Shown here: piece after piece, positions 1,450 through 37,600 of the stretch
Layout of the letters: each line of letters begins with the position of its first letter
Position numbering within the stretch: the stretch's first letter is position 1
From: Mobula birostris
Lineage: Eukaryota
Direction: 5' to 3'
NCBI RefSeq assembly: GCF_030028105.1
Contig: NC_092375.1
Location: 170,933,415 to 170,997,414 of the forward strand
DNA length: 64,000 nucleotides
Made by a program: the position numbers and the translations under genes
The notes under the pieces: model-generated
The model's input: the letters and a program-made list of their open reading frames with translations, nothing else
Told to the model about the DNA's origin: nothing
The model's database searches: none

Positions 1450-1597
1450 GAACACAAGAGATTCCACTGATGCTGAAAATCCAGAGAAACTCACCAGTCC
1501 TGATGAAGGGTTTTGGCCCGAAACCTTAACTGTTTATTCCCAACAATAGATTTTGCCTGGCCTGCTGAGTTCCTCCAGTGTTTTGCATGTGTTACTC
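1450..1597 (+). mobile_element. Short Penelope pseudo-LTR-derived element with degenerate hammerhead motif
   Basis: cagtc CTGATGA A GGGT tttg GCCC GAAA cctt aactg (1495-1532), followed by cctggcctgctgagttcctccag...tgtgtt, the same end as the Penelope at 14088-14736. Confidence 0.75.
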
Positions 1598-2401
1598 TGC
1601 AAAAACCTTTGCCCTGTTAGTATGAATGTTCTTCAGAACATCTCCACTTGTTTCCCTTTTTCTTGAGCCACATAATTTTATCCTCAGTCAGGAGAAATGT
1701 TCATTAATAATCCCACCCACGTTCTGTGGCTCAAGGCATAAGCCGCTCTGTTGATCTCTAAGGGAAGACTCTCTCATTAAATGCTCTTTTAATATAGCTA
1801 TAGAAACTCTTCGGATTTTCCTTAACCGTACATTGCAGATCTATCTCATACCTTACTTTGCCCTTCTGATTTTCCCTTTAAACATATTGTTAGTCTTTAT
1901 ATAGTATCAAGGGGTTCACTTAACCCAACCTTCTCAACCAATGTTCATTTTCTTTTTTTCCTGACCAGATCCTCAATATTCTCTACCAGGGTTCCTTAAA
2001 CATGTTAGGTTTACCCTCACCCTAATAGGAATATGTTGACCCTGGACATGATATCTTAAAAGCCTCCTGCTTGCCATCCATTCCTTTCCACTCAAGCAGG
2101 TTTATCCAATCAACCTCTGCTAGATCTTGTCTAATTTCCACTGCTCCAGTTTAGGATCCTTATCTGTGGACCTGTCCTAATCTTTTCCATCACTGTCTTA
2201 GAAGTAATAAAATCATGGTCACTGGATCCAAAGTGGTCCCTGACTGGCATTCAGTTTCTTACCCTACCTTGTTCCCAAAGAGAAGGTGCAATAATAAATC
2301 CTCCTTAGTAAGGCCCTTTAGGTATTGATTTCAGGAAACTATCCTGGACACACTTCACAAATTCCATCCTGACTGGGCCTCTAAGCTCAGAGTAGCCCAG
2401 T

Positions 2402-2931
2402 CAGAGTTCAAAGTAAATTTATTATCAAAGTACATGTATGTCACCACATACCACCTGGAGATTCATTTCTTGTGGGCATAGTCAATAAATCCAATAACCA
2501 TAATAGAATCAATGAAAGAACACACCAACTGGGCAGACAACCGGAGTGCAAAAGACAATAAACTGCAATTACAAAAAGAAAGATTAAAAAAAGGAAATAA
2601 TGATAAATAAACAAGCAAAAAATATCAAGAAGCTGAGGTTAAAAGTCCTTGAAAATGAGTCCATATGTTGTGGGAACATTTCACTGATGGGACAAGTGTA
2701 GTTCAGTGAGGGTATCCCCCTTGATTCAACAGCCTGATGGTTGAGGAATAATAACTGTTCCTGAACCTGGTGGTGTGAGTCCTGGGCTCCTGTATTTTCT
2801 TCCAGATGTCAGCAGCAAAAAGAGAGCATGATCTGGGCGGTGAGGGTCCTTGATGGTGGACACTGCTTTCCTGTGACAACGCTCCGTGTAGATGTGCTCA
2901 ATGGAGGGGAGGGCTTTAACTGTGGTGGACT
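2402..2931 (-). mobile_element. Rex1/Babar-type LINE 3' fragment
   Basis: Minus strand has ccatcaaggaccctcacc, gaacagttattattcctcaaccatcaggctg and an aataaatttactttgaactctga tail. Confidence 0.6.
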
Positions 2932-3627
2932 AATTAGTGCGAGCTTTTAATTTAAAACACCGTGGAAATTAAAAGCTCCCACTAATACAACCCTATTATT
3001 CTTACTACTATGAGCAATTTCTCTACACACCTGCTCCTCAAATCCTTGTCGCACAATATCCTTGTCACACCTGTAGCACCTGTCTTCTGAAATATTGAGC
3101 TGCCAGTCTTGCACTTCTCTCAGACACATTTCTCATCTAGCTATTACATCCTCGAGTTCAGAACCAATCTACGCTCTGAGTTCGCCTGCCTTACCTGTTA
3201 ACCCTCATGCATTAAAATAAAAGAAATTTCACTGAATATTCATTTCTCTCCCTTTGCTGTGCCCTGGCTATCCTCATTAATAAACTTGTTCTTGCAGTCT
3301 ACTGGGTTAACCCATGATTTGCTACCACTCAGAAATCCCGCCTCCTGCCAACCCTGTGTAGTAATAGCAAATTTCCCTGCAAGGACATTGGTCCCTCTCT
3401 GGTTCAAATGCAACCTATCCCTCTGTACAGGTCACCCCTGCCTCAAAAGAGATTCTAATGATCCATGGAACCTGAATCCCTGCCACCTGCAACAGGTCCT
3501 CAGCCTCACATTCATCAGGCCTGTGTTTCAGTTTCTGACATTGCTAGCGCGTGGCACTGGAAGTAATCTGGAGACCACTACCCTTGAGGCCTTGCTCATT
3601 AACACTTTACCTCATTTGGAGCTCGCT

Positions 3628-4142
3628 ACATGGAGCTTAGAGAAATAGAGGGCTATGTGGTAGGGTAATTCTGCCCAGATTCTAAAGTAGGTTACATGGT
3701 CGGCACAACATTGTGGGCTGAAGGGCCTGTAATGTGCTGTAGATTTCTATGTTTCTATATTTCTGTGTTTCTATCGAGCCTAGTGCTGTTCCTGACTGAA
3801 TTGAACTTTAGTAAGGTATTGGTTATGGTCTTTCTTTGAAGATCCTATGATAGCTATTAGATTTAAGACAACCTATAAGGTATTTGTGCAGTTACTTTAG
3901 TGATAATTGCTCTTAAGTTCCTTCCCCTTCTTTTTGCTTGATTTTTGTACTATTATTGTGAAGGTCACTAATGAAGGTAGTGGAAGTGGGTACTATAGGG
4001 TCTTTTAAGAGACTCTTGGAGCTTAGGAAAATAGAGGGCTATGTGGTAGGGTAATTCTAGGCAGTTTCTAGATTAGATTACATGCTTGGCACAACATTGT
4101 GGGCCGAAGGGCCTTTAATGTGCTGTAGATTTCTATGTTCTA
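3628..4142 (+). mobile_element. Two short 5'-truncated CR1 3'-end copies (about 3628-3775 and 3975-4142)
   Basis: Both read ggagcttag..aaatagagggctatgtggtagggtaattct...gtgctgtagatttctatgtt, similar to the 3' end of the CR1 at 27151-27996. Confidence 0.7.
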
Positions 4143-6164
4143 TATAATAATTTCTTATACTCATTCTGCAGGACCTTGTCTCCTGTTCTACCTATGTCAT
4201 TTGGACTAATGAGTACAACAAACTCTGCTATTTATCCTCCCCCTCAACAACCACTCAGAAACATCATTGATCCTGGCATCCACAAAGCAACACACTATTT
4301 TGGTGTCTCCTCTTCTAATACTTCTAAAATGTCTGTGGTCATCGCCCTTTAAAGGCCTTTTTTGAAGAACAAGCTTTCAGAAGAGCATGTGGGCAGTGCT
4401 TGCAGGACAGTGTAGCCACAGTTTGATAGAAATAGCATAGGAGCGGGTGGTGACAGGGTGTGGGGAGTGCACCGAACAGGCTAGATCAAGCGTAGGTAAT
4501 CTGTTAAATTCTCTTAATTTTGTGTTTTACATTGCATCATTTTAATTTGTAATAATTGTCATCTCTTGATATTAGCTACATAGATCATCTGAATGTCAGT
4601 AAAATTTAGCTTGCTTCCTCAAGGTGAAAAACCAGGAGATGAGCAGATATAACAACATACATTCCTAGAGCAGATTTACACCTACAAACATCTGAGCCCT
4701 TAAATCTTTAGAGATGCAATACAGATGCTGACCACTGATAGAAGTGTTTAAAAATAAATGACTAAAATCAAGAGTGATGAGTTTAAGGATCCTACACAAT
4801 TTCAAAAGAGAAATAACGAGAAGGAAAGGATTCATGGTGGAACGTGGGAGGGATAATTGCACAAGAATCTGGAGTTGAATGGATAAAGGACAAAGACCGA
4901 TGGAGCTCACCCAAAGTAAAGTTGAATAACATTAGAGATTTGTAGAGTATGAAGACTTTGATATAGCATTCGAGAGGAAACCAAGAAGGGAGGGCTGAAT
5001 TCTGTTTGGGTGTTGATTGATGTACTCTTGTCAAGAGTTGGCCGCATAGATAGGTGAGAACCATTTTACAACTGCGCACAGAGCCTAGGAGCTGCCGAAG
5101 GAGAAATCTGGTGGTTTTAGGAGGTGTGCTTATAATTTGCATTATTTTTCCCTTATTTTTTCCACGTTTCCTTCCAAAATATCATGATAGCAGCGCAGAT
5201 CAAACGGAGGACTTCAGAAATAGAATATATGCCACTAGCAATTATTCTTTCCAGATGCATGGATATCTCTCTATTTCTCCGAAGAAAATATGTCGTGCTG
5301 CCACATTAAAGAAATTTATCTGTGGTCTACTAATTGGGTGAGCAAATAAAACAGTTCGTGGCTGACAAAAAGTATAACCTTCAAATTCTTCATATGTCGC
5401 CTTTGTGCTCATAACAGTCAGTAGTAAAAAATTGCTTCACTTATGATCTTTGGCTTTTTTTAAAGCAACAGCAAGGTCTTGGAGTAGGTCTCCCTGGGAG
5501 CAGATCTTGACTTCAGTGCCTTGTAAATTAAATGATGGTGAATCAACAGACTGCTTTGCAACTTCCCATATTTTTGTTTCTGCTGATCTCAACCAACCAC
5601 AGATAAAGTCACAAATCTAAGAGCAGTTCTAATTGTTAGCCTTCTCTGCAAGCAACAATCTCTACCCCGCCCCCCAGTTGTGTGTTTTGTTGTGCATCCT
5701 TTAATTGGCTGCAGTGTTTCAAATATTACAGAACCATTCAACTAACATTTTACCAAATCTGCTCATCTCTCAAAAACTAGAGTCACTTCAGTCCTCTTTT
5801 TTAAAAATGTCTCTTGATCTTCACGAGATCTTTTTTGAACAGAGTCTACTCTCTGAAGATATAACTCTCTAGTTTATGTTCATATTCCCAGAGGTGGATT
5901 GCATTCTCTTTCAGGGCAAGGACAGTATTAACAATGAATGTCAAAGAAACTGTGATGCTAAATATTCTTGATACTGTCAACCAAATAGACCAAACTGGTG
6001 TGTTGGTGTATAAAACAGGTGGCAAGCATGTGGCTCGGTTTATTTCATTTGATAATGAAGCCACTGTGACAAGGCCATTACTTTTTTAAAGAGTAGTAGG
6101 TTTCTCAAAGATTACTGGGGTAATTAAAGTCCCATAAACAACCAGGCAACTGCTATGGAGACGT

Positions 6165-10600: not shown

Positions 10601-13600
10601 CTGTCACCTTCCTGTCAGCTTGAATCAGTCTGGCCATTCTCCTCTGACAACCCTCATTAACAAGGCATTTTTGCCCATGGAACTACCACTCACTGGATTT
10701 TTTTTTTGTGTTTCACACCATTCTCCGTAATCTCTAGAGACTGTTCTGCTTGAAAACCCCAGGAGATCAGCAGCTTCCGAGATCTTCAAACCAGCCCATC
10801 TGATACCAAAAATCATTCCACGGTCAAAGTCACTTAGATTACGTTTCTTTCCTATTCTGATATTTGGTCTGAACCATTGAACTGAACCTCTTAACCATGC
10901 TTGCATGCTTTTATTCATTGAGTTGCTGCCATATGATTGGCTGATTAGATTTTGCATTACTGTAACATGCAGGTGTACAGGTGTACCTAATAAAGTGGCC
11001 ATTGTGTGTATATCCACTTGGTTTATTTTGACTGTGTTTTCCAGTCTAATCTGATCATTTTTTTTACACAAATATTATCTTTTGTTTTCATTTGTTCACT
11101 TCAATAACCTATTGTTAGGCTAATTGCACTCCCCCAGAGTACTGCTTCATTAATATTTGCTACACCAGGCAGCTAATAGAACTATATTCCATGCATCAAT
11201 TTGCAAACATGGTTCACCTAATTTGCACAGGGAACAAAATGGAACGTTTCAGTAACTGCCTGAGGGAGTGCAATGCCCCAACTTGTGTCAAAGAATTTGA
11301 TGATTGTTGAGGCTTGAGTTTTCACTTATGAAAGAGCGAATGGTGGATGGCAGTCAGAGATCATCTGTTTATTACCTTTGGTCCATAAGGATGTTGGCCC
11401 ATTGAGATGCCACAGGTGAGCTTGAAAAACAGGGTAAAGGCGAATTTTTACAGGAGCAAGTCCAGACCATAGGAGGCTACAGTAAGTAATTTTATGCCCT
11501 GAAGTAATGGGAACTGGACCAGAGTGCAGTTGGAGATGATTCCAGGCTCGATGATGGTCAAGTCGGAACAGAATGGAATCTCTGTATTGATATGAGACCC
11601 ACAATCAATTTCCAAATTTGATTAAAGCAGTCATATTGTAAGGTCACTTTGATTAGTGCTTCTCCTTTAATTGATGAGTGCTGCCTGGGGATGTTTATTC
11701 TGAATAAACTTCACTTTATATTTCAGCTTTGTGACACTCTCTGTTATTGGGCACTAACTGTTAAGGCTCTTTGGCACACAAATTGGAAGCATAGATCTCT
11801 TTACGCAACAGAGCTTACCTTCTGCAATCTTCCATTACCTTGTCCACTGCTTACAGCATGTGATCAAAAATTGTCCACTGATATGAAAATAACATTCCAT
11901 TTTATAAAACCTGATCAGCACTGATCTTAGAATAGCTGCACCAGATTTTCTCTGAAGAATTTGTGACAGCATGTCAGCCTTCTGTCTGCAGTCCTGAACA
12001 AAACTGTTCAGGACTGTACAGTCCTGTACAAAGCTGTACAGTTTGCACTTGTGGAATCTTGCAAGCCTCGGGCATTGCACAGCTGCACAGCTTTTAAGTT
12101 TCTAAGGTCACCTCAAGATAGAATTCCACATCAGATCAAGTTTCTTTGAGTTTAATCTACTGTTGCTATCTGACTTATTTTTCTTTATAATTTACTATAC
12201 TCTTAGGCATCAATTGGTGATGCCAAAGTTCTCTCAAACAACTCAATGAAGGATTATTTTCCTTTCATTTAAAGATTAGGGACAACAATGGAATGTAGTA
12301 TGATTGCTGTAACTTTTGTGTGACAGGGCGATCGTGGTTATGAAGGACCAAAGGGATCTCATGGAGCTCCAGGCGCAGGTATTAAGGGTGAAAAGGTGAG
12401 GAGCACATATGCCCAATTTATGATACAGTCTTAATTGCAACAGCGGCTGTAGATTGTGTGATTTGAAGTGAACATTTTAAGAACAAATAAGCTAAGTTTG
12501 TACAGTAGTAGATTTCTTTATAGTATATTTCTATTTGAAATAATGGAAACTGAATTTACCGTTTCATAAACTAGAGCTATAATATCCTGTATCCAGTATT
12601 TGAAACTGGCCTGTGCAATATGGGAGTAAACATGATTGTGCATTTGGAAGGTGCACTGGATTCTAATCATTTTGGTGAGAATCCAGCATCATAAGTGGCA
12701 AGCAGAATTTCTGAAATGCTGATTGGTGTAACATTAGAGATGATAATAGGAAATCAAGAATATTAAAATTAAATATTTACATAAAGGAGACTAAAACCAC
12801 ACAGACCACCGACACAATCTGAGTGTTTACCCTGATAATTCTGGCTCAGTTACATATCATAGATACCAGCTAAAGTCAACTAAATCTTGATAGTTTAAAT
12901 TGCTAACTATGATCCTTAGCTGAGTGTTGTTGTCGAGAGGACCATTCAGACTTTAAATCCACTCCTGTCAGGGACTGGGGGAAAATCTAAGTGGTGCGTC
13001 CACTCAGCGCTAATAATCCAAAGTACGAAATTCTGAAGTTCCCTACCGGAAGTAGTGATTTCTGTAAGCCTGAATTTAGAGAGTGTGGGAGAAATAGTCC
13101 AGGTGAGCCCCAAAGAAGAGAGTAAATCTGGGGCATTTGGAATGCGGATCCCAGCCCGCTTTAATGGCTGGCTCTTATTTCCATCATTTTTCCTGTTCAC
13201 CATTAAGCAAGACGTACCATCTGGTCAGCAGGTGGAAGGAGGAAACGAGGTCACAGCTGGAGAAACGTGGGAATCATTGTCTGCATTCAGAGGTGGAATG
13301 CGGCGGGTAGTCTGAAATCGACGCAGAAATAGGGGGAGCATATTGGTGAAGGGAGACCCAAGACATCCTCTTCAGTCCCCGAGGAGCACTACACTGCAAC
13401 TTGCCTCACAAGGAAATCTGAATTTATGTTTTACAACTCACCAGCCCATCTGTTTTGCCAGTCTAGCTGTTCTGATCTGCCTTAATATTTCAGGACTAGT
13501 CCTGAACTGCTAATCAAGACCCAGTCTGCCTATTTAAAGGTGGAGGCAACTTCCTTCCTGCAGGTTTCCTGCTCATATGGCCAAAAGTGCAGGCTGCCAC

Positions 13601-16600
13601 TGGGACCCTACAAGAGGTCAGAGGGATTAAGCAGTTAAACAACTACCTATAATTTAACCGCACTCCTCACCACTCACACATTAATCACAACCCTGGCTGA
13701 TGAGATTTAGTCCTGGGTAAACAACCAAAATTTTAGTTATAACAACAAGATCTTCAGGGTCAAATAATACAAGTATCAGATCATTTTATTCAAATGTTCT
13801 CTTAGTAGCGAGAGTCTTCCTTGGTAGATATATTCATCTCATGAACTGATTCCAACCTCTGTTTAAAAAAAGCAGAGCATCTTACAACAATGCCATATAC
13901 TTTAACCATTAAACTATCTGCTGGATACTTAAACTAATAAACAACCTGCTGGATACTTTAACCAATAAACAATCTGCTGGATATTTTAACCAATAAACAA
14001 TCTGCTGGAGGACCTCAGTGGGCCAAGCAGTATCAGTAAGAGGCAAGAAATTGTCAACGTTTTGGGTCAAAACACTGCATCAAATTGCCTTCTATATATT
14101 GGCAAGACCTGACACAGCCTGAGAGACCGTTTCGCTGAACACCTATGCTCTGTCCGCCAGAGAAAGCAAGATCTCCCAGTGGCCACACATTTTAATTCCA
14201 CATCCCATTCCCATTCTGATATGTCTATCCACAGCCTCCTCTACTGTAAAGATGAAGCCACACTCAGGTTGGAGGAACAATACCTTATATTCCGTCTGGG
14301 TAGCCTCGAACTTGATGGCATGAACATTGACTTCTCAAACTTCCGCTAATGCCCCACCTCCCCCTTGTACCCCATCCGTTATTTATTTATATACACACAT
14401 TCTTTCCCTCACTCTCCTTTTTCTCCCTCTGTCCCTCTGACTATACCTCTTGCCCATCCTTTGGGTTCCCCCCCCCACTTGTCATTCTCCCTGGGCCTCC
14501 TGTCCCATGATCGTCTCATATCCCTTTTGCCAATCACCTGCCCAGCTCTTGGCTCCATCCCTCCCCCTCCTGTCTTCTCCTATCATTTTGGATCTCCCCC
14601 TCCCCCTTTTAAATCTCTTACTAGCTCTTCCTTCAGTTAGTCCTGACGAAGGGTCCCGGCCTGAAACGTCGACTGAACTTCTTCCTAGAGATGCTGCCTG
14701 ACCTGCTGCATTCACCAGCAACTTTGATGTGTGTTGATCAAATTGTTTGTTGCTTCACATTTTAGCGTATGCAGTCTCTTGTGTTCCCCCACTCCACACA
14801 TATTTATATATCAGTATTGTTTGCATTGGAGCAAATTCAGTGGACTAAGCATCAATGCATTGACCAAATGATGTGACACTTTATAACTTTTAAAAGACAG
14901 TTCATGAGGGCTTGGTTATTGCCTCAGATCTCAAAAGCTAAATTGATAGCCTTAATTCTTTTATTTCGACGTGAGTTCCATTTCTGTGAACTACGGATTC
15001 AGCCTTCCTCCTGTATTAAAAACTTGCTCCAGTGGTGTGCAATTTTTTATTCTGAACAAAATTCTTAATTTTCCATGTAAGACTAAAGCACGATATCTGG
15101 GAATGTGAATGTTATCAAGGAAGTCGATTCAAAATGGAGATTAGAACAACATGAATATTTTGTAAATATTTCTCTCTGCAGAACTGAATCTTGAATTCAA
15201 GTAATAATTACCTAAACCAACATTTGATATATTGTTTGGTATACAAAAGTAAGTTCAGATATGGTATCTCTTGTTATTATTACATTTGTTAATGTACCAT
15301 TTCACTTCTGAAATGTAACTCATCAGGGTGAAATAGGTTTTCCTGGATTACCTGGCCCTGTTGGTCCTCCTGGAGTTGGTCTACAAGGTGAAAAGGTAAT
15401 TATTTTGCATTTACTCTTAATTCAGCAAGTAACTCCTGTGACTTTTTCAATATTGAGTGCATACCTCCTGAAGAATGTTTCCAATTGCTCCCTACATTGA
15501 TAAAGTTATTTTGGTGTAGAACTGGCTGAATGAGTTTTGTCTGTTAGATAACAAGCACATAGTAGAAAATGCTCGCAGATGTTTGCACGTAGTTGTCTAA
15601 GATACCAGTTATCTTCTGGTGTTTTAGTGAAAAAGGTATGTACTGTGTCCAGACAGCCTAAACTTTCCACTTGACATGCAACTTCCTTTACATGTACAAT
15701 TCAAACAATATAATTATTGTAGCAGTTATTTCCGGCATGTATTCTTATCTGTGTGAACTCAATTCGGGCATTGTTGGTGTGCAGAAAGATGTGGCCTTTG
15801 TCAGCCATATGTGGAGGTCTTCATTCTATGTTCTGTTGTAAGATGGTGTATTCGGTCAGTAGTTTCTGCAAAATAGATGGCAGGTCCCAATATTTGGCTA
15901 AGCTTCATTCATGTGCATGCTGAACCCTTAATACAGGTGTTCCCAACCTTTTTTATACTGCCATGGACCCCGACTTTAACTGAACAGTCTGTGGACCCCA
16001 AGTTGGGTACCCCTGATCTAAATGCTTTTAAATGTTGTAATCGTTTCCAGCTCCTTCCACTCACTTCCTCTGACTGACACACACACACACACACACACAC
16101 ACCCCACCATCATGTGAAAAGCTTGCCTTTCCGGACCCTTTTAAATCTTCCTCCGCTTTCACCTTAAAATTATGTACTTGTTTAACCTTGGAAAAAGACT
16201 GTGGGCATCCATCTTATCTACTGTACATCCCTTGCAATTTTATACATTTATGTAGGGTCACCACTCAGCAGGAGGCAGGATGAAGTCCCAGCCTATCCAA
16301 TCTCTCCTTTCAATTTAAGTACCCTCCCTCAACTCCCAACAATGTCCTTGCAACCCCATTCTGCATCCCTTCCAGCTCAATTTCTTTACTGCTATTTCCC
16401 ACCTTAAGCTCCTTCAGCTGCATTATCAATGATCTTCCTTCCATAGGGTAAGAAGCAGCACTATTTGTTGTTGATGCCACAATGTTTAATTCTATTAGCG
16501 ACTCCTTCGAAAATGAGGTAGTCCCTAGCCACATGGCCATGTGTGGCTGTTGGCAATGTTGCCATGTAAGTGCCAGGCACTAATGAGAGAACCAGCTACC

Positions 16601-19600
16601 CTTAACATTCAATGGCAGTAGCGTCACCAAGTCTCTCACTATTAACACTCCAGCTGTTGCCAGACACTCAGCTGGATCACCACATAAAACTGTGACAGCA
16701 GGAGCAGGTCAGAGGCTGGGTACCTCACCTCCTGATGGGTTCCTTCCCAGCCAGTGAAAATCTGTCATAATGAATTTCAAAATCTTTCTTGATGACTCCC
16801 GCACCTTGCTCTCAAACCTATTTTAGAGTAATGCAGAATTTCACTGGTCAAAATGCGTTAAATTGAGGCAATTTATTTTGTATAATCTGGTAGGGAGTCC
16901 TAGGTCCAAGAGGACCAGCTGGCCTGAGAGGACCTCCAGGTGAGGGCTCGCCTGGATCAAAGGTAAGAGAAGCAAAAAGCTGCTAAAACGATTTATTATT
17001 TTCACAAACTTTAACACAAATTCTGAAGTCTGCTGAGGCATTCAAGACCAGTGATCCAGAACTATAAAAGAATTCCAGGTATGACCTATGGTGCAATCTA
17101 CAGAAGGCTAGTTTAAGAGTGAAAAAAAAACCAATTTCAATTGAAGTTAGAGATGGAACTGGATGCACGTCCGCTCTGGCAGGGTTCTCAGGTCTTTACT
17201 TCCTACAAAGTGAAACCCTAACATCATGAACAGCTGTGATTCTTCACTCCCAGATGAGCTCAATGCCTTTTATGCACGCTTTGAAAGAGACAATAAAATC
17301 ACACCCATGCGAATCCCTGCAGCATCTGGTGACCCTGTGATCTCGGTCTCGAAGGCTGACGTCAGAACATCTTTCAAGAGGATGAACCCTTGCAAGGTGT
17401 CAGGCCTTGATGGTGTACCTCGTTTGCCACTGAAAACCTCTGCCAACCAACTGGCAGGAATGTCAAGGACATCTTCAGTTTCTAACTGCTGCAGTCAGAG
17501 GTTCCCTACTGCTTCAAAATCATGCCAGTGCCAAAGAAGATCAGGGCGAGCTGCCTCAATGACTATCGCCCAGTTACACTTACATCTACTGTGATGAAGT
17601 GCTTTGAGAGGTTGGACATGGCCAGGATCAACTCTTGCCTAAGCAAGGACCTGGACCTGCGGCAAATTAGAATAGGTCTACAGCAGACGCAATCTCTTTC
17701 AGCTTTGGATCACCTGGACAATAGCAATATCTATGTCAGGCTGCTGTTTATTGACTACAGCTCAACATTCAACACAGTCATACCCTCAGTTCTAATCAAC
17801 CAGCTCCAAAACATGGGCCTCTGTACCTCTCTCTGCAACTGGAGCTTTGACTTTGTCACTGGGAGACTAGAGACTGTACGGATCAAAAGTGACTGATAAT
17901 CAACACTGCCACACCCCAGGGATACATGCTAAGTCCAGAACTCTACTCTCTCTACATCCATGACTGTGTGGCTAGGCACAGCTCAAACACCATCTTTAAA
18001 TTTGCCAATGACACCATCTTTAAATTTTCAGATGTTGACGAGGAGGAGTACAGGAGCGAGATAGCTGAAAGACGAAAAGCAAATTACCTGAAACTGTAGG
18101 GTTGGATATTGAATACTGAAATCTGCAGTATGCTCAAAAGGAAGATGTGTTGTTCTTTACTGAAAGGACTAATTGTAACAGTGCAGGCCACCAGATAGAT
18201 GATTCAAAGTGGGAGTGGGCTGGAGAACTAAAGTGGCAGGCAAACAGAGCTCGAGGTCACTTCAATGTAGGTGCTTTGCAAAGCAATCGCCCAATCTTGT
18301 TATAAGGAGGTGGCTAGGAATGGACCCAAGTGCAAGACACAGACACTGAAGTACTAGGGACAGGACTAGGATACAGGGCAATGGCAAGGACATGGACAGG
18401 AAAACCAGGAACCTGGAACAGGACTGGACAAAAGAGCTAGGAGCCCAGGCTTGGACTCCGAGCCATAGACTGGACAAGGACCCAGTACCTGGGTCTTGCC
18501 TCTGGCTCGGACCCCAGAACTAGGCAAGGAAGAAGCTTGGCTGGCAGGCAAGACGAAGCTGGAGTCTTAGAGATTTGAGGCGAGGCTTGGCAGGAGGCAG
18601 GAGACGAGGCGAGGCTTGGCAGGAGGCAGGAGACGAGGCGAGGCTTGGCAGGAGGCAGGAGACGAGGCGAGGCTTGGCAGGAGGCAGGAGACGAAGCGAG
18701 GCTTGGCAGGAGGCAGGAGACGAGGCGAGGCTTGGCAGGATGCAGGAGACTTGAGACGAGGCTTGGCAGGAGGCAGGAGACGAGGCGAGGCTTGGCAGGA
18801 TGCAGGAGACGAGGCGAGGCTTGGCAGGATGCAGGAGACGAGGCGAGGCTTGGCAGGATGCAGGAGACGAGGCGAGGCTTGGCAGGATGCAGGAGACGAG
18901 GCGAGGCTTGGCAGGATGCAGGAGACTTGAGGCTAGAGACCTGAGGCGAGGCTTGGCAGGATGCAGGAGGCTGGAGTCTAGAGACCTGAGGCGAGGCTTG
19001 GCAGGATGCAGGAGACTTGAGGCTAGCGACTTGGCAGGAGGCAGGAGACTGGAGGCTAGAGACCTGAGGCGAGGCTTGGCAGGAGGCAGGAGGCTGGAGT
19101 CTAGAGACCTGAGGTGAGGCTTGGCAGGAGGCAGGAGGCTGGAGGCTAGAGACCTGAGGCAAGGCTTGGCAGGAGGCTAGAGACCTGAGGCGAGGCTCGG
19201 CAGGAGGCTAGAGTCTTCAGGCTTGAGGCTCGGCAGAAGGCTGGAGTCTTCAGGCTTGAGGCTCGGCAGAAGGCTGGAGTCTTCAGGCTTGAGGCTAGCT
19301 AGGCTCCTCCTGGGCAGGGTGCGGTTCACCCGGGCAGGGCACGGTACTCCTGGGCAGGGCGCAGATCACCCCTCGACAGAGGCAAGGGACAGGAAGGGAG
19401 CTAGGTACAGGGTGGCTCCAGGACAAGACTACGGGCGAGAGTTACCAGCAAGACAAGGCAAGGCTTCAGGCAATGCAAGGCGAGACAAGAACTTCAGGTG
19501 AGGCAAGAGTTACCGGCAAGACAAGGCAAGGCGGGACGAGAGCTTCAGGCGAGGTGAGAGTTACCGGCAAGACAAGGCAGGGCTTCAGGCGAGGAAACAG

Positions 19601-22600
19601 AAGGCAGAGCAAGGGATACAAGGAGTAAGGACAAGAACAATCCAGCAGCCACACCCTGGTCTCTGGAGGTATTTATGCAGCCAGCCCCAATGAGCATCAG
19701 CTGCCTCAATTAGAGCTAAACAAGAACAGAAACAGGGTAAACAGGAAAACCTGGAGCAAGGGTCGATGGACCGGACCATGAACCGGAATATGGATTTCAC
19801 GGACTGGACCATGACAAATCTGTGTTTGTTTTCACCATTTTTGGGGAAACCACCTTTTGAACAATAAATGCAGTGGACTACATTGGAGGAAAACATGCGC
19901 AGTATGCTAATGGAACTCAGCAGGTCAAGCAGCATCTATGGGAATGAATAAACGGTGGATGTTTCCAGCCAAGACCCTTCATCAGGACTGGAAAGGAAGG
20001 GGGTGGGGGAAGATGCCAGAACAAGAAGGTGGAGGGAGGGGGAGGTGGACAAGCTAGAAGGTGATAGGTGAAGCCAGGTGGGGCGGGGGAGGGCATGAGG
20101 TAAGAAGCTAAGGGGTGATTAAGTGGAAAACGCAAAGGGCTGAAGAAGAAGGAATCTGACAGGAAAGGACAGTGGATCGTGGAAGAAAGGGAAGGTTGGG
20201 GAGCAGTGTGGGAAGGTTATTGGCAGGTGAGGAGAAGAGGTAAGAAGCCAGAGTGGGGTAATTGAAGAAGAGGGGAGGGGGAGGGGTAGAAATTACCAGA
20301 AGTTGGAGAAATCAATGTTCATGCCATCAGGTCAGAGACTGCCTAGATAGATTATGAGTGCTGCTCCTCCAACCTGCATCATCATGCAGAAGAGGAAGCC
20401 ATGGACCGACATGTTGGAATGGGAATGGGGAATGGAATTGAAATGGTTGGCCAGTGAGAAATTAGGCCTTTTGCTAATGGAGCTGAGGTGCTCAACAAAG
20501 CAGTCCCCCAATGTACTCCCAGATTGGAAGAAATGCAAATGAATTGTTGTGTCACTGGAAAAGGAGTGATATTTCTCAGGGATCAAAAATGTAAAATGAC
20601 AAGTATTGCATCTCCAAGGTTGCATGGGAATGTGCTGTGGGAAGGGAAGAGATCAACGCTGATTTGAAAAGCTTGAAAAGGGAGCTGATAATGTGTCTGA
20701 TGGTGGAACCTCTTTGGAACCGGTGGAAATTGCAAAGGTTGTGGAGGCTAGTGGGCTGGAAGGTGAGGACCAGAGAAACTACCCTTACTCTGTTCAGGAG
20801 GGATGGGATAAGAGCAGTGTTGTGTGGAATAAAGCATTTATTGGACTTCAACAGAGATAGTAAGTGCCAGTCACTGCTTTCCTATTCCCAATGATTTGAA
20901 TTTACATTTCCTTGGTTGGCATGATAGGATCTGAACTCATGTCCCTCTACTATTATAAAAACCCTTTATAGAGTAGCCTATCTAAATAAGCTGCCATATC
21001 CTTGCATACCAATACATCGGACTAACTTATTAGGGCATTTCATTCAATGTACCAAGGCACCAATATGCTTCTTCGGCCTGATTGGCCCAAAACGATAGCT
21101 GTATGATGTGTGATTTATATCCACACCTTTGGACTAAGTGGGTAATTAAAGGTGGCATGTCCTGGTGCCTTCAAAACAAGGGGATTCCTTGCTCTTGGTC
21201 GAGGAGAGAGAGAGATCGAGCTGCCAGGAGTTCACATTGGACAAAGTATGGAGCTGCTATTGAGTTTTCTGGTAGATATATTTTTGTAAATATTGGCACT
21301 TTTCTTTTCACTATTTTCACTATTTGTTGTAAGTTTGATTTTTTGACGCACTGAACATCCTTGCATGAAAGTGCTAAGTGATTCTAGCCATCTTTTCTTT
21401 GATCGTAGCCCAAAATCTAACACGGTGCATTTCACAGAGTAAGTGCCTCTTGTCTGCTGCCACAAGCAAAAGACCCATCTAGATTGTTTAATTTATTTTT
21501 ATCTCCAGAATTTGGGTCAGAATAGTGAATAGAAGAGAATGTTTTGTCCCACTTTACTGACATCAGAAACACCTTTCTTGGCATCCTGTCAAAGTTGAAA
21601 TTGGTACTACTGCCACATTGAGTTGTTATAGACTTTTAAGTCTATAGCAAATTCACAATAACCATGATTACCAACCAAAGTGCCATGTACTCCCCTTCCA
21701 TGTGCTTCATACCTGTGGTGTGAGGCAATCACAACTGCAAGTTAAGTGATTGAGGGCAATTAAAAAATGTCTTGCCTGCTTGGAATTAAATTTAGTTTAC
21801 TTAGTTGTTGTATCATTTTTACTTCAGATTATTTGTATAAAGCATATATTTTAATTAAATTTGAACATAATTCTCAAACCATTCTGCAGGGCGATCAAGG
21901 TTTGCCTGGAGAAATTGGAGCTCCAGGAGAAAGAGGAATTGGAGAGCCAGGACCAAAAGTAAGTGAGAAAAATAAGTAAAAATAAGTGAGAGAGAAGTAA
22001 GAGAAACATCAAGGAGACTGGTGGATAGTTTTATTAACAGAAGACAAATAATACCTGTGAGAAATGTGTTTGAAATGACGTCCATTAACTTGAAATCATC
22101 AAATGTATTTCAAAATTATTCATAGCCATTTCTCTTGAGGCTGATGTTGCTTTAAAGAAAAGGTAGATGAGATTAGAAATTTTGACTAAATTCTTTTTAT
22201 CTTCTTTGTATATGCTAAAATTAACATAACAGGTTTCCTGTTAAAAATCTTGCGCTGTTGAGGACTACACAGCTGAACTGCTGATAAGTTGCTTTTGTCT
22301 TTGTGCAGAGTGCCATCTATTGGACATTTACAGGAACTGGACCTCAGTTTTGTCATGTTTAATGGCAACTAACATAAATTATACTTTTAATATTGAAGAA
22401 TGCTTTATGAATAAAAGGGCTAGCATTAAATTGAATGACCTATGATATTCCAACACAAGTAAGTTTTTTTCAGTTTTGTATTACCCGTCAAAACTGCTAC
22501 TGAATTTGCGATCTGGCCTAAACCGATGTGGTAGATTGGCAGTGGAAATTCATCCTGTTCTTTGTGTTTAAAATCAGGTAATGTCTGATTGAATCTAATT

Positions 22601-25600: not shown

Positions 25601-28600
25601 AATACGGAACTGATACGGTACAAATACGGTAGTGGCAATCCTACTTGGATGGTGAGGAACTTGGTATAAGCCACGCTACCCAGCATTGATTTCTTTACTC
25701 ATGGAAATCTTGCCTCACCATGCCCAGCACACTCTGGTGGAACTCAATTCCAATGCCCCAACGCGTCTTCAGCGGAAAGCAAAATGGTCTCCCCACTATC
25801 CCGCACGTGCGTAATGACATCACCGTCTCCCTTAAAGGCACAGACAACTATTCTAGCATTACCTGGATGGATGCCTAAGTACACTTTTAACGACACTGAA
25901 TAAGATCCGACGGTCACCCGGTTACACTAGCTGCGTTGCAGGAGTTGCCAGTCAGCATTGAACTCAATGTAGGACTGCCTTAGGGACTCCAGCTCTGGAT
26001 TTTCCTTAGGGTTTACTCCCAAAACCTTCCCCATGAGTGGGTATAGCCGCAGGACAGTGGAGGTATGAGATCAGAGTTTTCCTTCTCCTAGATGAGCTGC
26101 CAATGACAGCTGACAACCCCATTTGCCTGAAGTGACTGGTTTTAAGGCACTTAATTTATTTCCTTCTAAACCTTTTCTATCAATGTCCCTGTCCAAATGT
26201 CTTTTAAATGTTCTAATGTACCTGCCTTTACAACTTTCTCTTGTAGCTTGTTCCAATGCCCACCACAGTCTGTGTGGAAGAGCATGCCTCTATATCTTTC
26301 CCTTCTTACCTTAATCTAATTCCCTCTAGTTTTATACTCCCTGACCCTGGGAAAGAGACTGTGACTATCCACTCCATCTTATCCTCCTCGTGATTTCCTA
26401 AAGGTCATTCATCAATCATCTCTGCTCCAAGGATAACAGTCCCGGGCCCTCCAGTCTCAGCAACATCCTTAAGGACCCCCACCACCCTGGACATGCCCTC
26501 TTCACACTGTTACCATTGGGAAGGAGGTTCAGAAGCCCAAGGCACACACTCAGCAATTCAGGAACAGCTTCTTCTCCTCTGCCATCCAGTTTCTAAATGG
26601 ACATTGAACTGATTAACACTACCTCACTACCTTTTTATTTGTTATTTTGCACTTAACTATTTAATAGACATGTATATACATAATGTAACTCTTTTTTCTC
26701 TATATTTATTTATCATGTATTTCATTGTACTACTGCCTTAAAGTTTCATGACATATACTGGTGATATTAAATCTGATCCTGATTCTGAAATATCATAAGC
26801 TATAATTTTGTATTACTACTGTTGAATTTTGAATACTGTCTAGTGGGAAAAAATTGGTGAAATATAATTTGATTGCATTAATACTCTTGATAATCAATCA
26901 ATCTTGATAATTCTATGATGCAGATAAAAGTATTGATTTGTCTGTTCAATATTAAAAATATTCCAACACTCTTAATACATCTACTTTGATAGTCAGATTG
27001 GTGTATTAGTCATGATAAGTTGACACTGATTATTGTTTCCAATTTTTGGTAACATCTAACTGGTATTAGAACAATCCATTACACTACCTCTAAATTAAAT
27101 GCTGGTGAGATTATTACTGATATTCGCCAATCACTATTTTCTTTAATTACCTGTCAGAGGTTACAACGGGACATTGATAGGATGCAAAACTGGGCTGAGA
27201 AGTGGCAGATGGAGTTCAACCCAGATAAGTGTGAGGTGGTTCATTGGTAGGCCAAATATGATGGCAAAATATAGTATTAATGGTAAGTCTCTTGGCAGTG
27301 TGGAGTATCAAAGGAATCTTGAGGTCCAAGTCCATAGGACACTCAAAGCTGCTACGCAGGTTGACTCTGTGGTTAAGAAGGCATACGGTGCATTGGCCTT
27401 CATCAGTCATGGGATTGAGTTTAAGAGCCAAGAGGCAATGTTACAGCTATATAGGACCCTGGTCAGACCATACTTCAAGTACTGTGCTCAATTCTGGTTG
27501 CCTCACTATAGGAAGGTAATGGAAACCATAGAAAGGGTGCAGAGGAGATTTACAAGGATGTTGCCTGGAATGGGGAGCATGCCTTACGAGAATAGGTTGA
27601 GTGAACTCGGCCTTTTCTCCTTGGAGCGATGGAGGATGAGAGGTGATTTGATAGAGGTGTACAAGATAAGGGGAGGCATTGATCATGTGGATAGTTAGAG
27701 TCTTTTCCCCAGGGCTGAACTGGCTAGCATGAGAGGGCATAGTTCTAAGGTGCTTGGAAGTAGGTACAGAGGAGATGTCAGGTTAAGTTTTTTAATGCAG
27801 AGAGTGGTGAGTGCGTGGAATGGCTGCCAGTGGCGGAAACGATAGGGTCTTTTAAGAGACTCCTGGATGTCTACCTGGAGCTTAGAAAAATAGAGGGCTA
27901 TGGGTAAAGCCTAGGTAGTTCTAAGGTAGGGACATGTTCGGCACAGCTTCGTGGGCTGAAGGGCCTGTATTGCGTCGTATGTTTTCTATGTTTCTACTGT
28001 CACAGGGAGAACCTGGATTGCCAGGACCAAGAGGGGCTGAAGGAGCACTTGGCATAGGGATTCAAGGAGAGAAGGTAAATACTTTTCCTCTGAAATATGT
28101 GGTGTGATTTCTCCTGTTTTTCCTAGGATATAGGAAGATGTTTGCATTTTCTCCACCTTGGATCTGGAGGACATCTGCCAAATTGTTTGCTTCCAGTCCA
28201 TTGTGAAAGCAACATTATACATTAACATTGTTCTACTGATTCCCTGACAAACTGCATCACTGCATGGTACAGAAACTGAACTATGGATCTAGCTCTTTTA
28301 GAGCAATGACCCACCCCCTTAACACTACGTATTGACCTGTTGTCCATGCATGTGCATTGTTCTCTCTCTTGTTGCAATGTGAATACACCAGTTACAGCCC
28401 TCTTCCACGTGCATGCTTTTATTTAATTGATATGTTGTTGTGCACAGACACAATAAATTGGTGATGAGTATGAACCTGAATGTCAGAAAATATCAAAACT
28501 ACCACTAGTTACGGGACAAAACAATGAGAGTTAAGCAGCATGAGAAAGCCATCACGGGTGCAAGCAAATGAATGCATGTGTAAGATTGAAAGATGCACTG

Positions 28601-31600
28601 AATTTAAAATGAAAATAATGTGATGATGGCTTCAGTCAGGAAAGTTGATGAATTTGATAGTGCTGAGGAAGGCTGGGAATCCTACATCAGGAGGGTTGAA
28701 CTGTTTTGTAATGCGAACGACATGGAAGAGAAAAAGAAAGTCCTTGTGCTTCTTAGCTTAATAGGGGCAAGAACGTACAGTCTTTTACACAACTTAGTAA
28801 CCCCTGAAAAACTAGTGAGCAAGACATTCAATGAAATTGTTACAGTTTAACAAAATCACTTGACCCCTAAACCACTGGTTATAACTGAGAGATTTAGATT
28901 TTACAAAAGGAACCAGTCAAAGGATAAAAACCTTTCTGAATACATTGCAGAACTGCACAGATTTTCCCAGTACTGTGACTTTAGAAGTGGATTTTTTGAT
29001 GCACAGGACAGGATTGTATGTGGCATGCATAGTCAAAGCACTCAAAAGATGCTACTCTCTGAAAGAGACGGAACATTAGAATGGGCATTGACCATTGCAA
29101 TATTGTTTGAGACTACAGCAAAGGAGGTTAGAATGTGAAATGCGCAAAACATTCCTTAGTGGTACAAAAAGCCAAAATGTTATCAATGTGGCAAATCCTC
29201 CCATGATGCACATGACTGTTGGTTCAAGGAAAAAGTGTGCAGAAAGTGTCACAGACAAGGTCACAAAGAGTGTGCAAATCAAACAAAAAAGGACAATCAA
29301 AAAGAAAAACCACACCAAGTGAAGTGTTTTACACACAAAACTAAGCAAGTGCATAAAGTGAGTGAATGTGAAACAGACAACATAGAGTCTGATGAAGGTG
29401 AGCTGTCATGCCTAGAATTGCATAATATTACTGAAGCAGATCACAAAATCATTTGGATCACAATAGATGTGTCTGGTGTAAAACTTAAAATGGAGCTGGA
29501 TACAGGGTCAGATTTGTCTATGATTTCAGAGGCTGACTACAACAGACTGTTTTCTAAGATACCATTAGAAAAGACCTCAGTAATATTAAAGACCTACACA
29601 GGCAAAAATGTACCTCCCAAAGACAAACTAAAAGTGAACGTAACGTATGGAGGCCAAACACAGCAGTTAGAGGTTTATGTATTGAAAAAAGTGCCAGCAC
29701 TTTTTGGACGTGAATAGTTGAGAAAAATCAAACTAGACCGGCACTCAAACAAAGCTCTCAGTGTGACATCAACAGGAAATGGCAGCCCAAATGGTAGTAC
29801 TGCCCAGAGACTGGCACAACTGCTTAATGCTAATGAGACGGGCATTGTTAAACTCAGAGGCATGAAGGCCAGAATTGAACTGGATGAAACAGCAACACCA
29901 AGATTCCATAAAGTGCATCCAGTGCCTTACACACTACATCCTACAGTGGATGCTCTATGGCAGAGCTTGGAGGCATCTAGAATTCTCTCCAAGGTTGAGT
30001 GGAGCGATTAGACCACGACCATTGCCCCAGTGATCAAGGAAGGGAAGGCTGGAGTCATTTTCATGTGTGGGGATTTCAAGGTGAATATCATCCCTGTGCT
30101 GCGTACTGTGCAGTATCCTTTGCTGTGATTAGAAGACACTTTTGCATCTTTGGCAGGTGGGGAAAGGTTTTTCAAAGATTGACTTGTCACAAAGCTATTT
30201 GCAAATGGAGATTGAGGAATCAAGCAGGAAGTTCCTCACAAGGAACTGTTCCAGTATAATCGTCTTGTCATTGGCGTCGCATCAGCTCCTGCAATTTGGC
30301 AAAGAACAATGGACCAAGTGCTCCAAGATATCCCAGGAACACAGTGTGACCTCGATGACATCATTGTGACTGGCAAAAATGATGAAGAGCACCTCCAGAA
30401 CCTTGGTAGAGTGCTTACCAGGGTGATTGAATATGGTCTGTGCACACAGAGAGAGAAATGTGAGTTTTTCAAGATTGAAATCTCATATTGTGGACATGTC
30501 ATTAACAAGCAGGGTTTACATAAGTCACAAGTGAAGACTGAAGCAGTGCCACAGGCACCCAAACCAGAAAATGTGTCACAACTCAGATCATACTTGGGCC
30601 TTGTAAACTACTATCACTGGTTTCTCCCAAACATCACTACAGTGCTGCATCCATTCAATGCACTGTTACAGATAGGAGCAAAGTGGGAATGGTCAGAAAG
30701 ATGTGAAAAAGCATTCAAGGAAACGGAGACTAATAACTTCCAATGAACTGCTCACCTATTCTGACTCATCCCTGCCTATCAGACAGGTGTGCGATGCATC
30801 CTCGCCCATCAGACAGGTGTGCGATGAGTCCCCCTATGGCATTGAAGCCGTCTGGTCACACACTATGAAAAATAGATCTGAACGCTCAATTATGTTTGCT
30901 TCAAGATCACTGACAAGTGGACAATGCAACGACGCACATATTGACCGAGAGACCCTTAGTCTAGTATGGCGAATAAAGAAGTTCCACCACTACATCTACA
31001 GACAAAAGCTTACACTAGTGACAGGTCACCAGTGCTGTATGTCCATTTTCAATCCTTGGAAGGAAATTCCAGTGATGACTGCTACACAGTTACAACGTTG
31101 GGCACTGTTCCTACGATCTCACTCTTATGACATAGAGTTCAAGGGTACCAAACAACACAGCAACACTAATGGCTTGTCTCGTCTTCCACGGTTGGCAACT
31201 GAAGAAGGAAAGTCTTGTACTGTGACCCAGCAGAAGTGATCTGCACCTCATTGCTGGACCAGTTACTGAAATACAAAGAGAAACAAGGAATGACCCGACA
31301 TTGTCAAAAGTCTATGAAATCACCGTACAAAGATAGCCAGCTCATGGTAACTCTATGTTCCCAGAGTTCTCAGCAAGACGAGATGAACTGTTGGTATGTC
31401 AAAGGAAGCTGATGTGTGGATCTCATGTTGTGGTTCCTTCTAAACTGTACACCAAAGTGTTATAAAATATGCATGAAGGACACCTGGGTACGATCAAGGT
31501 GAAGAGTCTCACCCAGAGTGACATGTGGTGGCCAGGAATAGATAAGCAGATTGAAGACGTGGCCAAAAGCCGTTTGGGATGCCAAAACGTTCAAAATGCA

Positions 31601-34600: not shown

Positions 34601-37600
34601 GATTGTGTAAGTATTCACCCCTTTTAATACAACACACCAAACAATCACTGGTGCAGCCAATTGGTTTTAGAAATCACATAATTAATGAAATGGAGATCAA
34701 TCTGTGTGTAGTCAAGGTGTTTCAATTGATTGTAGTTAAAGTTCACCTGTATCTGGAAGGTCCAACTGGGATTAGATCAGTTATAGATTATGGTTGTATT
34801 GCTTATGGTTTTGCTGCTACGGCAGAGCTTGGAAAACTGGACACTGTGCAGTCCAAAGCACTTAGACTCTGTTGTGGAGCTTTTAGAACAGCATCAGTCC
34901 CGGCATTATGTGTGGAGATGGGAGAAGTGCCTCTGCATTTAAGACGAATTCAGTTGGGCCTGTAGTATTGGGTAAAACTAAATGGATTCAATCACAGCTG
35001 TCCGCTAAAGTGTCTTTTGCAGGGGAAGTCGGAGTGCCAAAGTAAAATTAAAAGATACCCATTTTTAGATTTGGTTAATAACTGGGCTGTGAAATTGAAA
35101 CTGACTGAGGAAGACATAGTTGACCAAATTTGCTTGCCACCCATCCCTTTTTGGCTCTTTCCAGAATCAGAAGTAAACCTATTTCTCCTTTTTCAGCTTA
35201 AAGGAAGCAGTGCAATTTCATCAGCGTTGATCACAAATGAATATTTAAATAATAAATATGGATCTTATCTGAAGATTTTTCCTGATGGCTCAGTGGACCC
35301 AGAGAGCAGTAGGGCAGGATTTGGGATGTATGTGTCTCAACTTGAAGTTAAGGTTGGTCACCGGGTTTCAGGTGGTGTTTCTGTCTTTGCAACAGAATTA
35401 TTAGCAATCCTCTGGGCTTTATGGTGAATAGAAGACTCTCGACCACATAGGGTTATCATCTGTTCGGATTCTGCTGCTGTCTTAGAGTCTGTAAAAGGAA
35501 GTAAATCAAAAGCTCGTCCTGACTTAGTTATTGAGATTCTCTTAGTGTTGTTTAGAGTAGGGAAGATGGGTTGTGCAATTAGATTTTCATGGATACCTGG
35601 GCATGCTGGGGTGGAGGGAAATGAAATTGTGGATGGCATTGCAAAGTCTTCCTTACAGAGCAGGCAAGTAGAAATTAGAGTTGCCCTAGGCAGAGCAGAG
35701 TTGAGAAGTAGGATTAAAAAAGGTATAGAGAAGAAGTGGCAGGAGGATTGGAAAAATGAATTAAGGGGCAGGCATTATTTTTCTAGTCACCCACTAGTTA
35801 AAAAGGTCTCAGACTGTTACCTTTTAAGTTGTAGAGATATGGTGAAATTTACAAGACTTAGGTTGGGGCATTGTGGGCTAAACTATTATTTAAATGTAAT
35901 AGGAAAATATCCTGCTGGATTATGTGACTGTGGTAGTCCAGAGACAGCCCAGCATGTTTTGCTGAGCTGTAATCGATACAAAATTGAAAGAAGCATGTTG
36001 TTCAAGAGGCTATCTGGCTTAAATTTATTTTGGTTTTCTATTAAATCTTTGTTTGGCCATCAAGAGAATCAATATCTGATTGAAGAGGCCATTATTCAGT
36101 TTATACGTGAGACTAGGTTGTATTCAAGAATTTGAGTTCCTTGAAGTTCTATAATTAATTATACATCCTGCGGAGGGCTGTAATACGCCTAGATGCGTCT
36201 AAACAGCCAGAAACAGAAGAAGAAGAAGAAGGCCCAACTGCTGGTGAGCCAGTATCCTGGCAAAAACTACACCACGAAGTCAAAAGAACACTCCAAACAA
36301 CTCCACAAAAAGGTTATGGAAAAGCACAAGTCAGGAGATGGATACAAGAAAATTTCCAATATCCCTTGCAGTACAGTTAAGTCAATCATCAAGAAATGGA
36401 AAGAATACAGCACAGCTGTAAATCTGCCTAGAGCAGGCTGTCCTCAAAAACTGAGTAACCGTGTAAGAAGGGGACAAATGAGGGAGGCCACCAAGAGACC
36501 TATGACAACTTTGAAGGAGTTGTAAGCTTCAGTGGCTGAGATGGGAGAGACTGCACATACAACAACTGTTGCCAGAGAAAGCCACTGTTGAAAAAACACT
36601 TACATGAAATGTCAGCCAGAGTTTGCCAGAAGACATGTGGAGTCAACTGGAAGAAGGTTCTATGGTTTGATGAAACCGAAATTGAGCTTCTTGGCCATCA
36701 GACTAAACACTACACATCATCACAAACACACCATCCCTACTGTGAACAATGGTGGCTTCATCGTGCTGTGAGGACATTTCACTGGATCTGGCCCTGGAAG
36801 GCTTGTGACAGTAGGAAGTAAAATGAATGCAACAAAATACATGGAAATCCTGGAGGAAAACCTGATGCACTCTGCAAAGGAACTGCGGCTCAGGAGAAGA
36901 TTTGCTTTCCAGCAAGACAATAACCCCAAGCATAAAGCCAAAGCCACACAAGAGTGGCTTAAAAGCAACAAAGTTAATGTCCTGGAGTGGCCAAATCAGA
37001 GTGCAGACCTCAATCCAACTTAGAATTTGTGGCTGAACTTAAAAGGTGCTGTTCACTCATGCCATCTGACAGAGCTTGTGCAGTTTAGTAAAAAAGAATG
37101 GGGAAAAATTGCAGTGTCCAGTGCAAAGCTGATAGAGACCTGTCCACAGAGACTCAAGGCTGTAATTGCTGCCAAAGGTGCATCTACTAAATACTGACCT
37201 GAAGGGGGTGAATACTTCTGCAGTCAATTATTTTGTGTTTTATATTTGTCATAAATTTAGACCAATTTGTAGAAATCTGTTTTCACTTTGACACGCAAGA
37301 GTCTTTTCTATTGATCAGTGTCAAAAAAGCCAAAGTAAATCCATTGTCATTCAATGTTGTACAATAGAACATGAAAACTTCCAAGTGGGGGGGGGGGGGT
37401 TGAATACTTTTTATCAGCACTGTAATTAATGCCAATGCGGACATCAACACTTTAGCTAGGATTTCCTTCAATATTTTCCCAGACATCATGTGTGGTAGAG
37501 ATTTGTCATAAATTTCAGAATTTTGAAGAGATAAGATGGCATGTTAATAAACATGTTGAGATCTTTTTGTAAAATCCAGTTCTAAAATTAAATGCACAAA

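Follow-up and report, generated by a model that had tools for sequence, protein, structure and literature searches.

A retroelement copy in an intron of col28a2a

The window (the whole 64,000-nucleotide stretch of Mobula birostris DNA that was analysed) carries exons of the gene for collagen XXVIII alpha 2a, col28a2a. When the ray col28a2a protein was mapped, all exons fell on the + strand, including a long exon at about 58350-58920 that encodes a VWA domain 99% identical to ray collagen XXVIII alpha 2a; the first VWA exon of the gene is found 37 kb upstream of the window. The hammerhead motif with which we are concerned sits 650 nt upstream of the 3' splice site of a 2.9-kb intron (12396-15326) between two Gly-X-Y exons, each bounded by AG and GT (Table 1), and since every mapped exon is on the + strand, the earlier note was right to place the motif on the transcribed strand of a collagen intron. 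Other introns of the gene contain coding remnants that, judged by eye, resemble LINE or LTR retrotransposons (17214-17896, 27147-27698, 29160-31239, 34603-36135, 40913-42223 and 52680-53757), and a purine-rich tandem repeat region at 18437-19207 has long open frames on both strands. Three contig sets from the same species, of uncertain kind, were compared with 12200-17100; they cover the repeat only and carry no information on RNA ends, strand or level.

Table 1. Features at the locus, in window coordinates, with their strand and the basis or detail of each call
Feature	Position	Strand	Basis or detail
Upstream Gly-X-Y exon of col28a2a, 69 nt	12327-12395	+	protein mapping and splice sites
Older, heavily decayed pLTR/hammerhead remnant	13996..14082	-	BLASTN to other window remnants; weak profile match, E 0.47
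Target-site duplication, left, 9 bp	14079..14087	+	direct repeat
5'-truncated Penelope-like retroelement copy, 649 bp	14088..14736	+	BLASTN to 15 long copies; bounded by target duplication
C-terminal remnant of GIY-YIG endonuclease ORF	14088..14349	+	translation; protein similarity
3' UTR / pseudo-LTR with hammerhead	14350..14736	+	BLASTN to long copies; comparison with tandem copy L195
Minimal type I hammerhead	14637..14676	+	read from sequence and column comparison with 34 young copies
Hammerhead stem I	14637-14642 with 14671-14676	+	six pairs, one of them U·G
Hammerhead core C3-A9	14643-14649	+
Extra A between 9 and 10.1	14650	+
Hammerhead stem II	14651-14662	+	G10.1·U11.1
G12-A15.1 (GAAA)	14663-14666	+
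ACGU palindrome, in place of helix III	14666-14669	+
C17	14670	+	predicted cut site 14670/14671
Target-site duplication, right, 9 bp	14737..14745	+	direct repeat
Downstream Gly-X-Y exon of col28a2a, 69 nt	15327-15395	+	protein mapping and splice sites

The motif belongs to the pseudo-LTR (pLTR) of a 5'-truncated Penelope-like element (PLE), as the earlier note had proposed for a minimal type I hammerhead, and several lines of evidence bear this out. One is the 9-bp target duplication that bounds the insertion (Table 1). Another is the endonuclease remnant, which lies 290 nt upstream of the motif on the same strand, is interrupted by an in-frame stop (14110-14112) before its natural stop (14347-14349), and is 72-89% identical to six ray proteins; the three of these proteins that were scanned have GIY-YIG matches, all below the Pfam cut-off, and a Pfam scan of the 78-aa window remnant gave no match. 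A third is that the 649-bp copy is approximately 90-92% identical by BLASTN to the 3' ends of 15 of 15 long, reverse transcriptase (RT)-bearing copies, which are 15 of the 99 listed, chosen by likeness to one protein and not independent. The open frames of these long copies encode an RT with a YIDD-type motif, then a CxxCxxC linker (11 of 15; in the other four loci the listed open frame ends before the linker is reached) and then GIY-YIG. In the two that were scanned, L191 and L195, RVT_1 was matched with E-values of 1.7e-4 and 1.4e-5 and GIY-YIG with 2.5e-4 and 6.6e-3, all below the Pfam cut-offs.

One of the 15 long loci, L195, has the canonical tandem pLTR-ORF-pLTR arrangement, in which an ORF is flanked by two hammerheads of the same strand at a distance of 3,728 nt (copy at 2367-6095, - strand, with a stop-to-stop frame of 1,114 codons); in one of the two hammerheads, both sides of the palindrome carry a CpG change. 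Several long loci (e.g., L194, L198, L202) have an inverted upstream pLTR. The first plausible ATG of L195 is about 166 nt downstream of C3, and the pLTR of the window copy ends 66 nt past the cut site, before the ORF start seen in tandem copies. With an RT, a zinc-finger-like CX2-5CxxC linker and GIY-YIG at the C-terminus in its long relatives, and with both tandem and inverted pLTRs, the element would be a Neptune-type EN+ PLE by the clade features in the accessible text of PMC8557442 only, the linker being common to Nematis; unlike complete elements of this type, the window copy keeps the last 649 bp only, with the tail of the endonuclease. This young element inserted right beside the older remnant on the opposite strand (Table 1), and a 28-bp tandem repeat of about four units (13897-14008) lies just 5' of it. 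Further decayed pLTR/hammerhead remnants occur in the window at 1494-1541 (+), 19944-19995 (-) and 37654-37740. Two database proteins that bear the names of host genes, P0124 and P0126 (a divergent kinase and ATP synthase C3-like), contain the endonuclease tail of the element and are likely to be gene-model chimeras with the repeat.

Layout of the hammerhead and its G·U lineage

Nucleotides are numbered here by the standard hammerhead scheme. The numbering is consistent with that of PMC4209133. On direct reading, the CUGANGA, GAAA and UH boxes are present in type I order and every catalytic core base is intact, helix III is absent and positions 15.2-16.2 form the palindrome ACGU; the earlier claims of a complete core, a short stem II and a palindrome in place of stem III thus describe the motif correctly. 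The stem I of 6 bp with one G-U that had also been described is found in the window copy but does not extend to the family: A14676, which makes the sixth pair, occurs in 1 of 34 young copies and is therefore a private substitution, and stem I of the family, as read from the aligned copies, is of 5 bp rather than 6. The extra nucleotide A14650, by comparison, is an A in 33 of the 34. The exact 40-mer (14637-14676) occurs twice in the genome; further bases private to this copy are at 14656 and 14679. Because position 11.1 (14662) is a U, the core is flanked by a G·U pair where the conserved one is G-C; an alternative A10.1-U11.1 register has a pair probability of 0.02, against 0.96 for G·U.

The motif was also reported to be the least decayed copy in the window, and it does score highest against a profile of the family (56.6 bits, against 42.4 at +1494 and 32.8 at -19991, the profile having been seeded partly from such copies as these two); the copies at +1494 and -19991 both lack the ACGU palindrome. 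The 64-kb window holds 19 matches to a loose core pattern, with 7.1 expected. A type I structure descriptor, one of the checks that had been suggested, gave 30 matches in 1,655,314 nt of introns and 0 in every one of 10 shuffled versions. A 33-nt degenerate pattern is matched exactly at 33,489 places in the 4.0-Gb genome, and its reversed control at 0; these numbers exclude chance as the origin of the motif. The other suggested search, with the Rfam hammerhead models, came back empty: at E<=10 there was no hammerhead family among the 9 matches in the whole window or the 2 in 14500-14800. The missing helix III is the likely cause, and the Rfam scan would be uninformative for motifs of this kind.

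Position 11.1 divides the family. It is a C in 6,917 of the 33,489 pattern matches and a U in 26,572 (79%), as in the window copy, and 19 of 19 hammerheads in the long loci have U11.1, these loci having been picked by likeness to one protein and not being independent. Simple CpG decay as the source of the U was considered and ruled out, because U11.1 is found in 22 of 34 young copies and other CpG positions are changed in 2-5 of 34; G12 is changed in 1 of 34. U11.1 therefore appears to have been inherited from the dominant, RT-bearing lineage. A bolder reading is that the top Penelope lineage spread to more than 26,000 copies after G10.1-C11.1 had become G·U, so that its hammerhead may be weakened or dispensable and, at the outer edge of the idea, that the element protein licenses sense copies, in their thousands, to nick host introns as trans-dimers; we consider this rather unlikely. 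In the accessible parts of the hammerhead literature searched, we found no data on the effect of a G·U at 10.1/11.1.

Orientation and decay of intronic copies

If hammerheads of this family cut the transcripts in which they lie, copies in sense orientation might be expected to be rarer than antisense ones. We compared the two orientations in 1,655,314 nt between same-strand exons of eight genes, namely six CUB-domain genes, whose orientation was inferred from same-strand CUB exons and not from annotation, and two collagen XXVIII genes. The descriptor found 18 sense and 18 antisense copies in these introns and the profile 98 and 106 (p=0.62, CI 0.41-0.55), with an intact core and palindrome in 20 of the 98 and 22 of the 106. 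Among the 204 hammerhead-like matches (L031-L190), 70 have an opposite-strand match within 1 kb. An inverted pLTR footprint is known for Penelope-like elements. With the 70 inverted-pair matches removed, the sense to antisense counts were 64:70, 21:23 and, in the strictest class of lone matches with intact core and palindrome, 12:15 (95% CI 0.25-0.65 sense). A set of 27 copies picked by their flanks comprised 10 sense and 17 antisense, with 8 of 10 and 11 of 17 intact. Sense copies are thus not depleted; strong purging of them is excluded, and mild purging is compatible with the counts.

In the 27 flank-picked copies, private non-CpG substitutions number 3 in 243 core sites, 6 in 378 stem sites and 29 in 1782 flank sites (p=0.85-1.0). 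Core and flanks accumulate private changes at the same pace, as in neutral decay, in a comparison that has few events and low power. A contrast seen earlier between core and flank (2/340 versus 32/714) was discarded as a sign of selection because the choice of copies had been based on core score and the flanks included subfamily variants; the difference disappeared when the comparison was repeated on flank-picked copies. Stem covariation across copies, the lack of which the earlier note had listed among its refuting results, is nearly absent and gives no support for the structure: with 138 of 204 copies in register, each pair of stem I has 0-5 two-sided changes and each pair of stem II has 0-1, and all 30 descriptor matches come from one family, which leaves no distant family for the comparison.

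These counts also bear on the idea that the window copy has been retained by the host for regulation, with nicks in the nascent transcript lowering or reshaping the output of col28a2a. The sense orientation of the copy, its standing as the best preserved in the window and the private substitution that adds a sixth stem I pair would all suit such a role. Set against this, 7 of 110 sites in the copy depart from the subfamily majority, when the median among the 27 copies is 4, and its preservation is for that reason nothing unusual; introns often hold intact sense copies, as counted above, and the core is no better conserved than its flanks. A retained regulator is, in our judgement, scarcely credible.

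Folding, precedents and the collagen transcript

The predicted fold of the 40-mer is a rod (-12.3 kcal/mol, z -1.4) in which core nucleotides G5-G8 pair with C15.2-C17. The probability of this pairing between the core and the cleavage triplet is 0.98 in the 40-mer and 0.6 in the pLTR context, in a model of secondary structure that omits tertiary contacts, magnesium and proteins. The locked rod would be a trait of the family, because typical copies are predicted to fold alike. The same secondary-structure model bears on the proposal that the motif cleaves as a dimer or in trans: the strand-swapped active dimer is predicted at -14.1 kcal/mol, more than 10 kcal/mol less favourable than two locked monomers (-24.6) and 18 less favourable than the best inactive dimer (-32.6), which speaks against it. 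The nearest intact partner on the same strand is a second sense hammerhead of col28a2a (L173), 23.4 kb upstream and four mapped exons away; it is located at approximately 170,924,697, 8.7 kb before the start of the window, and two antisense copies are found further upstream of it.

The window motif is a further copy of a hammerhead class already described. Cervera and De la Pena (2014; PMC4209133) reported minimal hammerheads (min-HHRs) in the pLTRs of metazoan PLEs, with thousands of mostly lone copies in vertebrates (about 4,000 in coelacanth and 9,000 in Xenopus). The motif shares with them the type I order, the lack of a real helix III, the palindromic 15.2-16.2, the extra nucleotide between 9 and 10.1, the short helix I and the pLTR location, and differs in the G·U at 10.1/11.1, where their G10.1-C11.1 pair is highly conserved (the search descriptor of that paper does not include this pair), in a stem II of 3-4 bp and in a higher copy number. 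Cartilaginous fish are not among the organisms named in its accessible text. The hammerhead of the Anolis element Poseidon (PMC11167929) likewise lies in a pLTR, with stems I and II just upstream of the ORF in tandem copies; it comes from another PLE clade, however, and its ORF starts inside stem II, whereas the ATG of L195 comes after the motif. Its activity was assayed, and our family is known from sequence and predicted folds. Non-LTR retrozymes (PMC7229834; bioRxiv 10.64898/2026.07.22.740005) also have type I hammerheads of PLE origin but are short non-coding tandem repeats, unlike the window copy, which is single and has an endonuclease remnant and a target duplication. The preprint describes retrozymes derived from PLEs in one cartilaginous fish and reports that they are under-represented in the introns of Xenopus, and the word 'orientation' does not occur in its accessible text. 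Our narrow literature search found no paper on Penelope hammerheads in elasmobranchs, and the family may still have been published.

The dimer model of PLE hammerheads has been reviewed (PMC6765202) and, by analogy with the literature, suggests what the motif might do in full elements. In the tandem pLTR-ORF-pLTR arrangement, the two hammerheads would pair through the ACGU palindrome, probably assisted by the element protein, and cut the RNA of the element out of a longer transcript. The window copy has no partner in its own intron. It also ends short of the ORF start found after the motif in tandem copies, its core is predicted to be locked against the cleavage triplet, and splicing would remove it together with the intron, to be degraded. 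The proposal that it nicks collagen pre-mRNA after C14670, possibly in trans, is not supported, and the undepleted sense copies, the neutral decay, the near absence of covariation and the predicted locked core speak against it. The folding models, the population pattern and the published assays together suggest an inactive copy, and we consider it very probable that the motif, a hammerhead in the 3' pLTR of a 5'-truncated PLE and one of tens of thousands, is silent in this col28a2a intron.

A milder version, in which the motif occasionally cuts together with another copy (the one 23.4 kb upstream, or element RNA in trans) and the element protein, the nick being harmless because the intron is still spliced, has to our mind a slim chance of being right. 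Core and palindrome are intact, the gene holds a second intact sense copy, the genome offers tens of thousands of potential partners and long copies with large open frames exist; moreover, cleavage by a slow hammerhead does not prevent an intron from being spliced in cells, according to work described second-hand in PMC2995048, and for that reason the even strand ratio is compatible with harmless cuts. Apart from the predicted energies, what weighs against it is that PLE hammerhead monomers did not cleave and dimers cleaved poorly even in cis, according to the accessible text of PMC4209133, that the copy has a G·U in place of G10.1-C11.1, and that it ends before the ORF start region, which by analogy with the Anolis element would be the proposed protein-binding part. 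In the accessible text of PMC11167929, the Anolis hammerhead is inactive without the protein of the element and is not required for insertion in vitro, and no RNA-seq ends are reported at its cut site.

Taken as a silent copy, the window locus matters little by itself, being transposon debris of a described class. If introns were cut, pre-mRNAs might be nicked at roughly one in two of the intronic copies, which number in the tens of thousands, a hidden cost of transposon load, and the even sense to antisense ratio argues that any such cost would be small. The purpose of PLE hammerheads could be approached cheaply through the G·U lineage, and the C11.1 and U11.1 lineages, present in one genome, would be a natural pair with which to ask whether these ribozymes matter for transposition.
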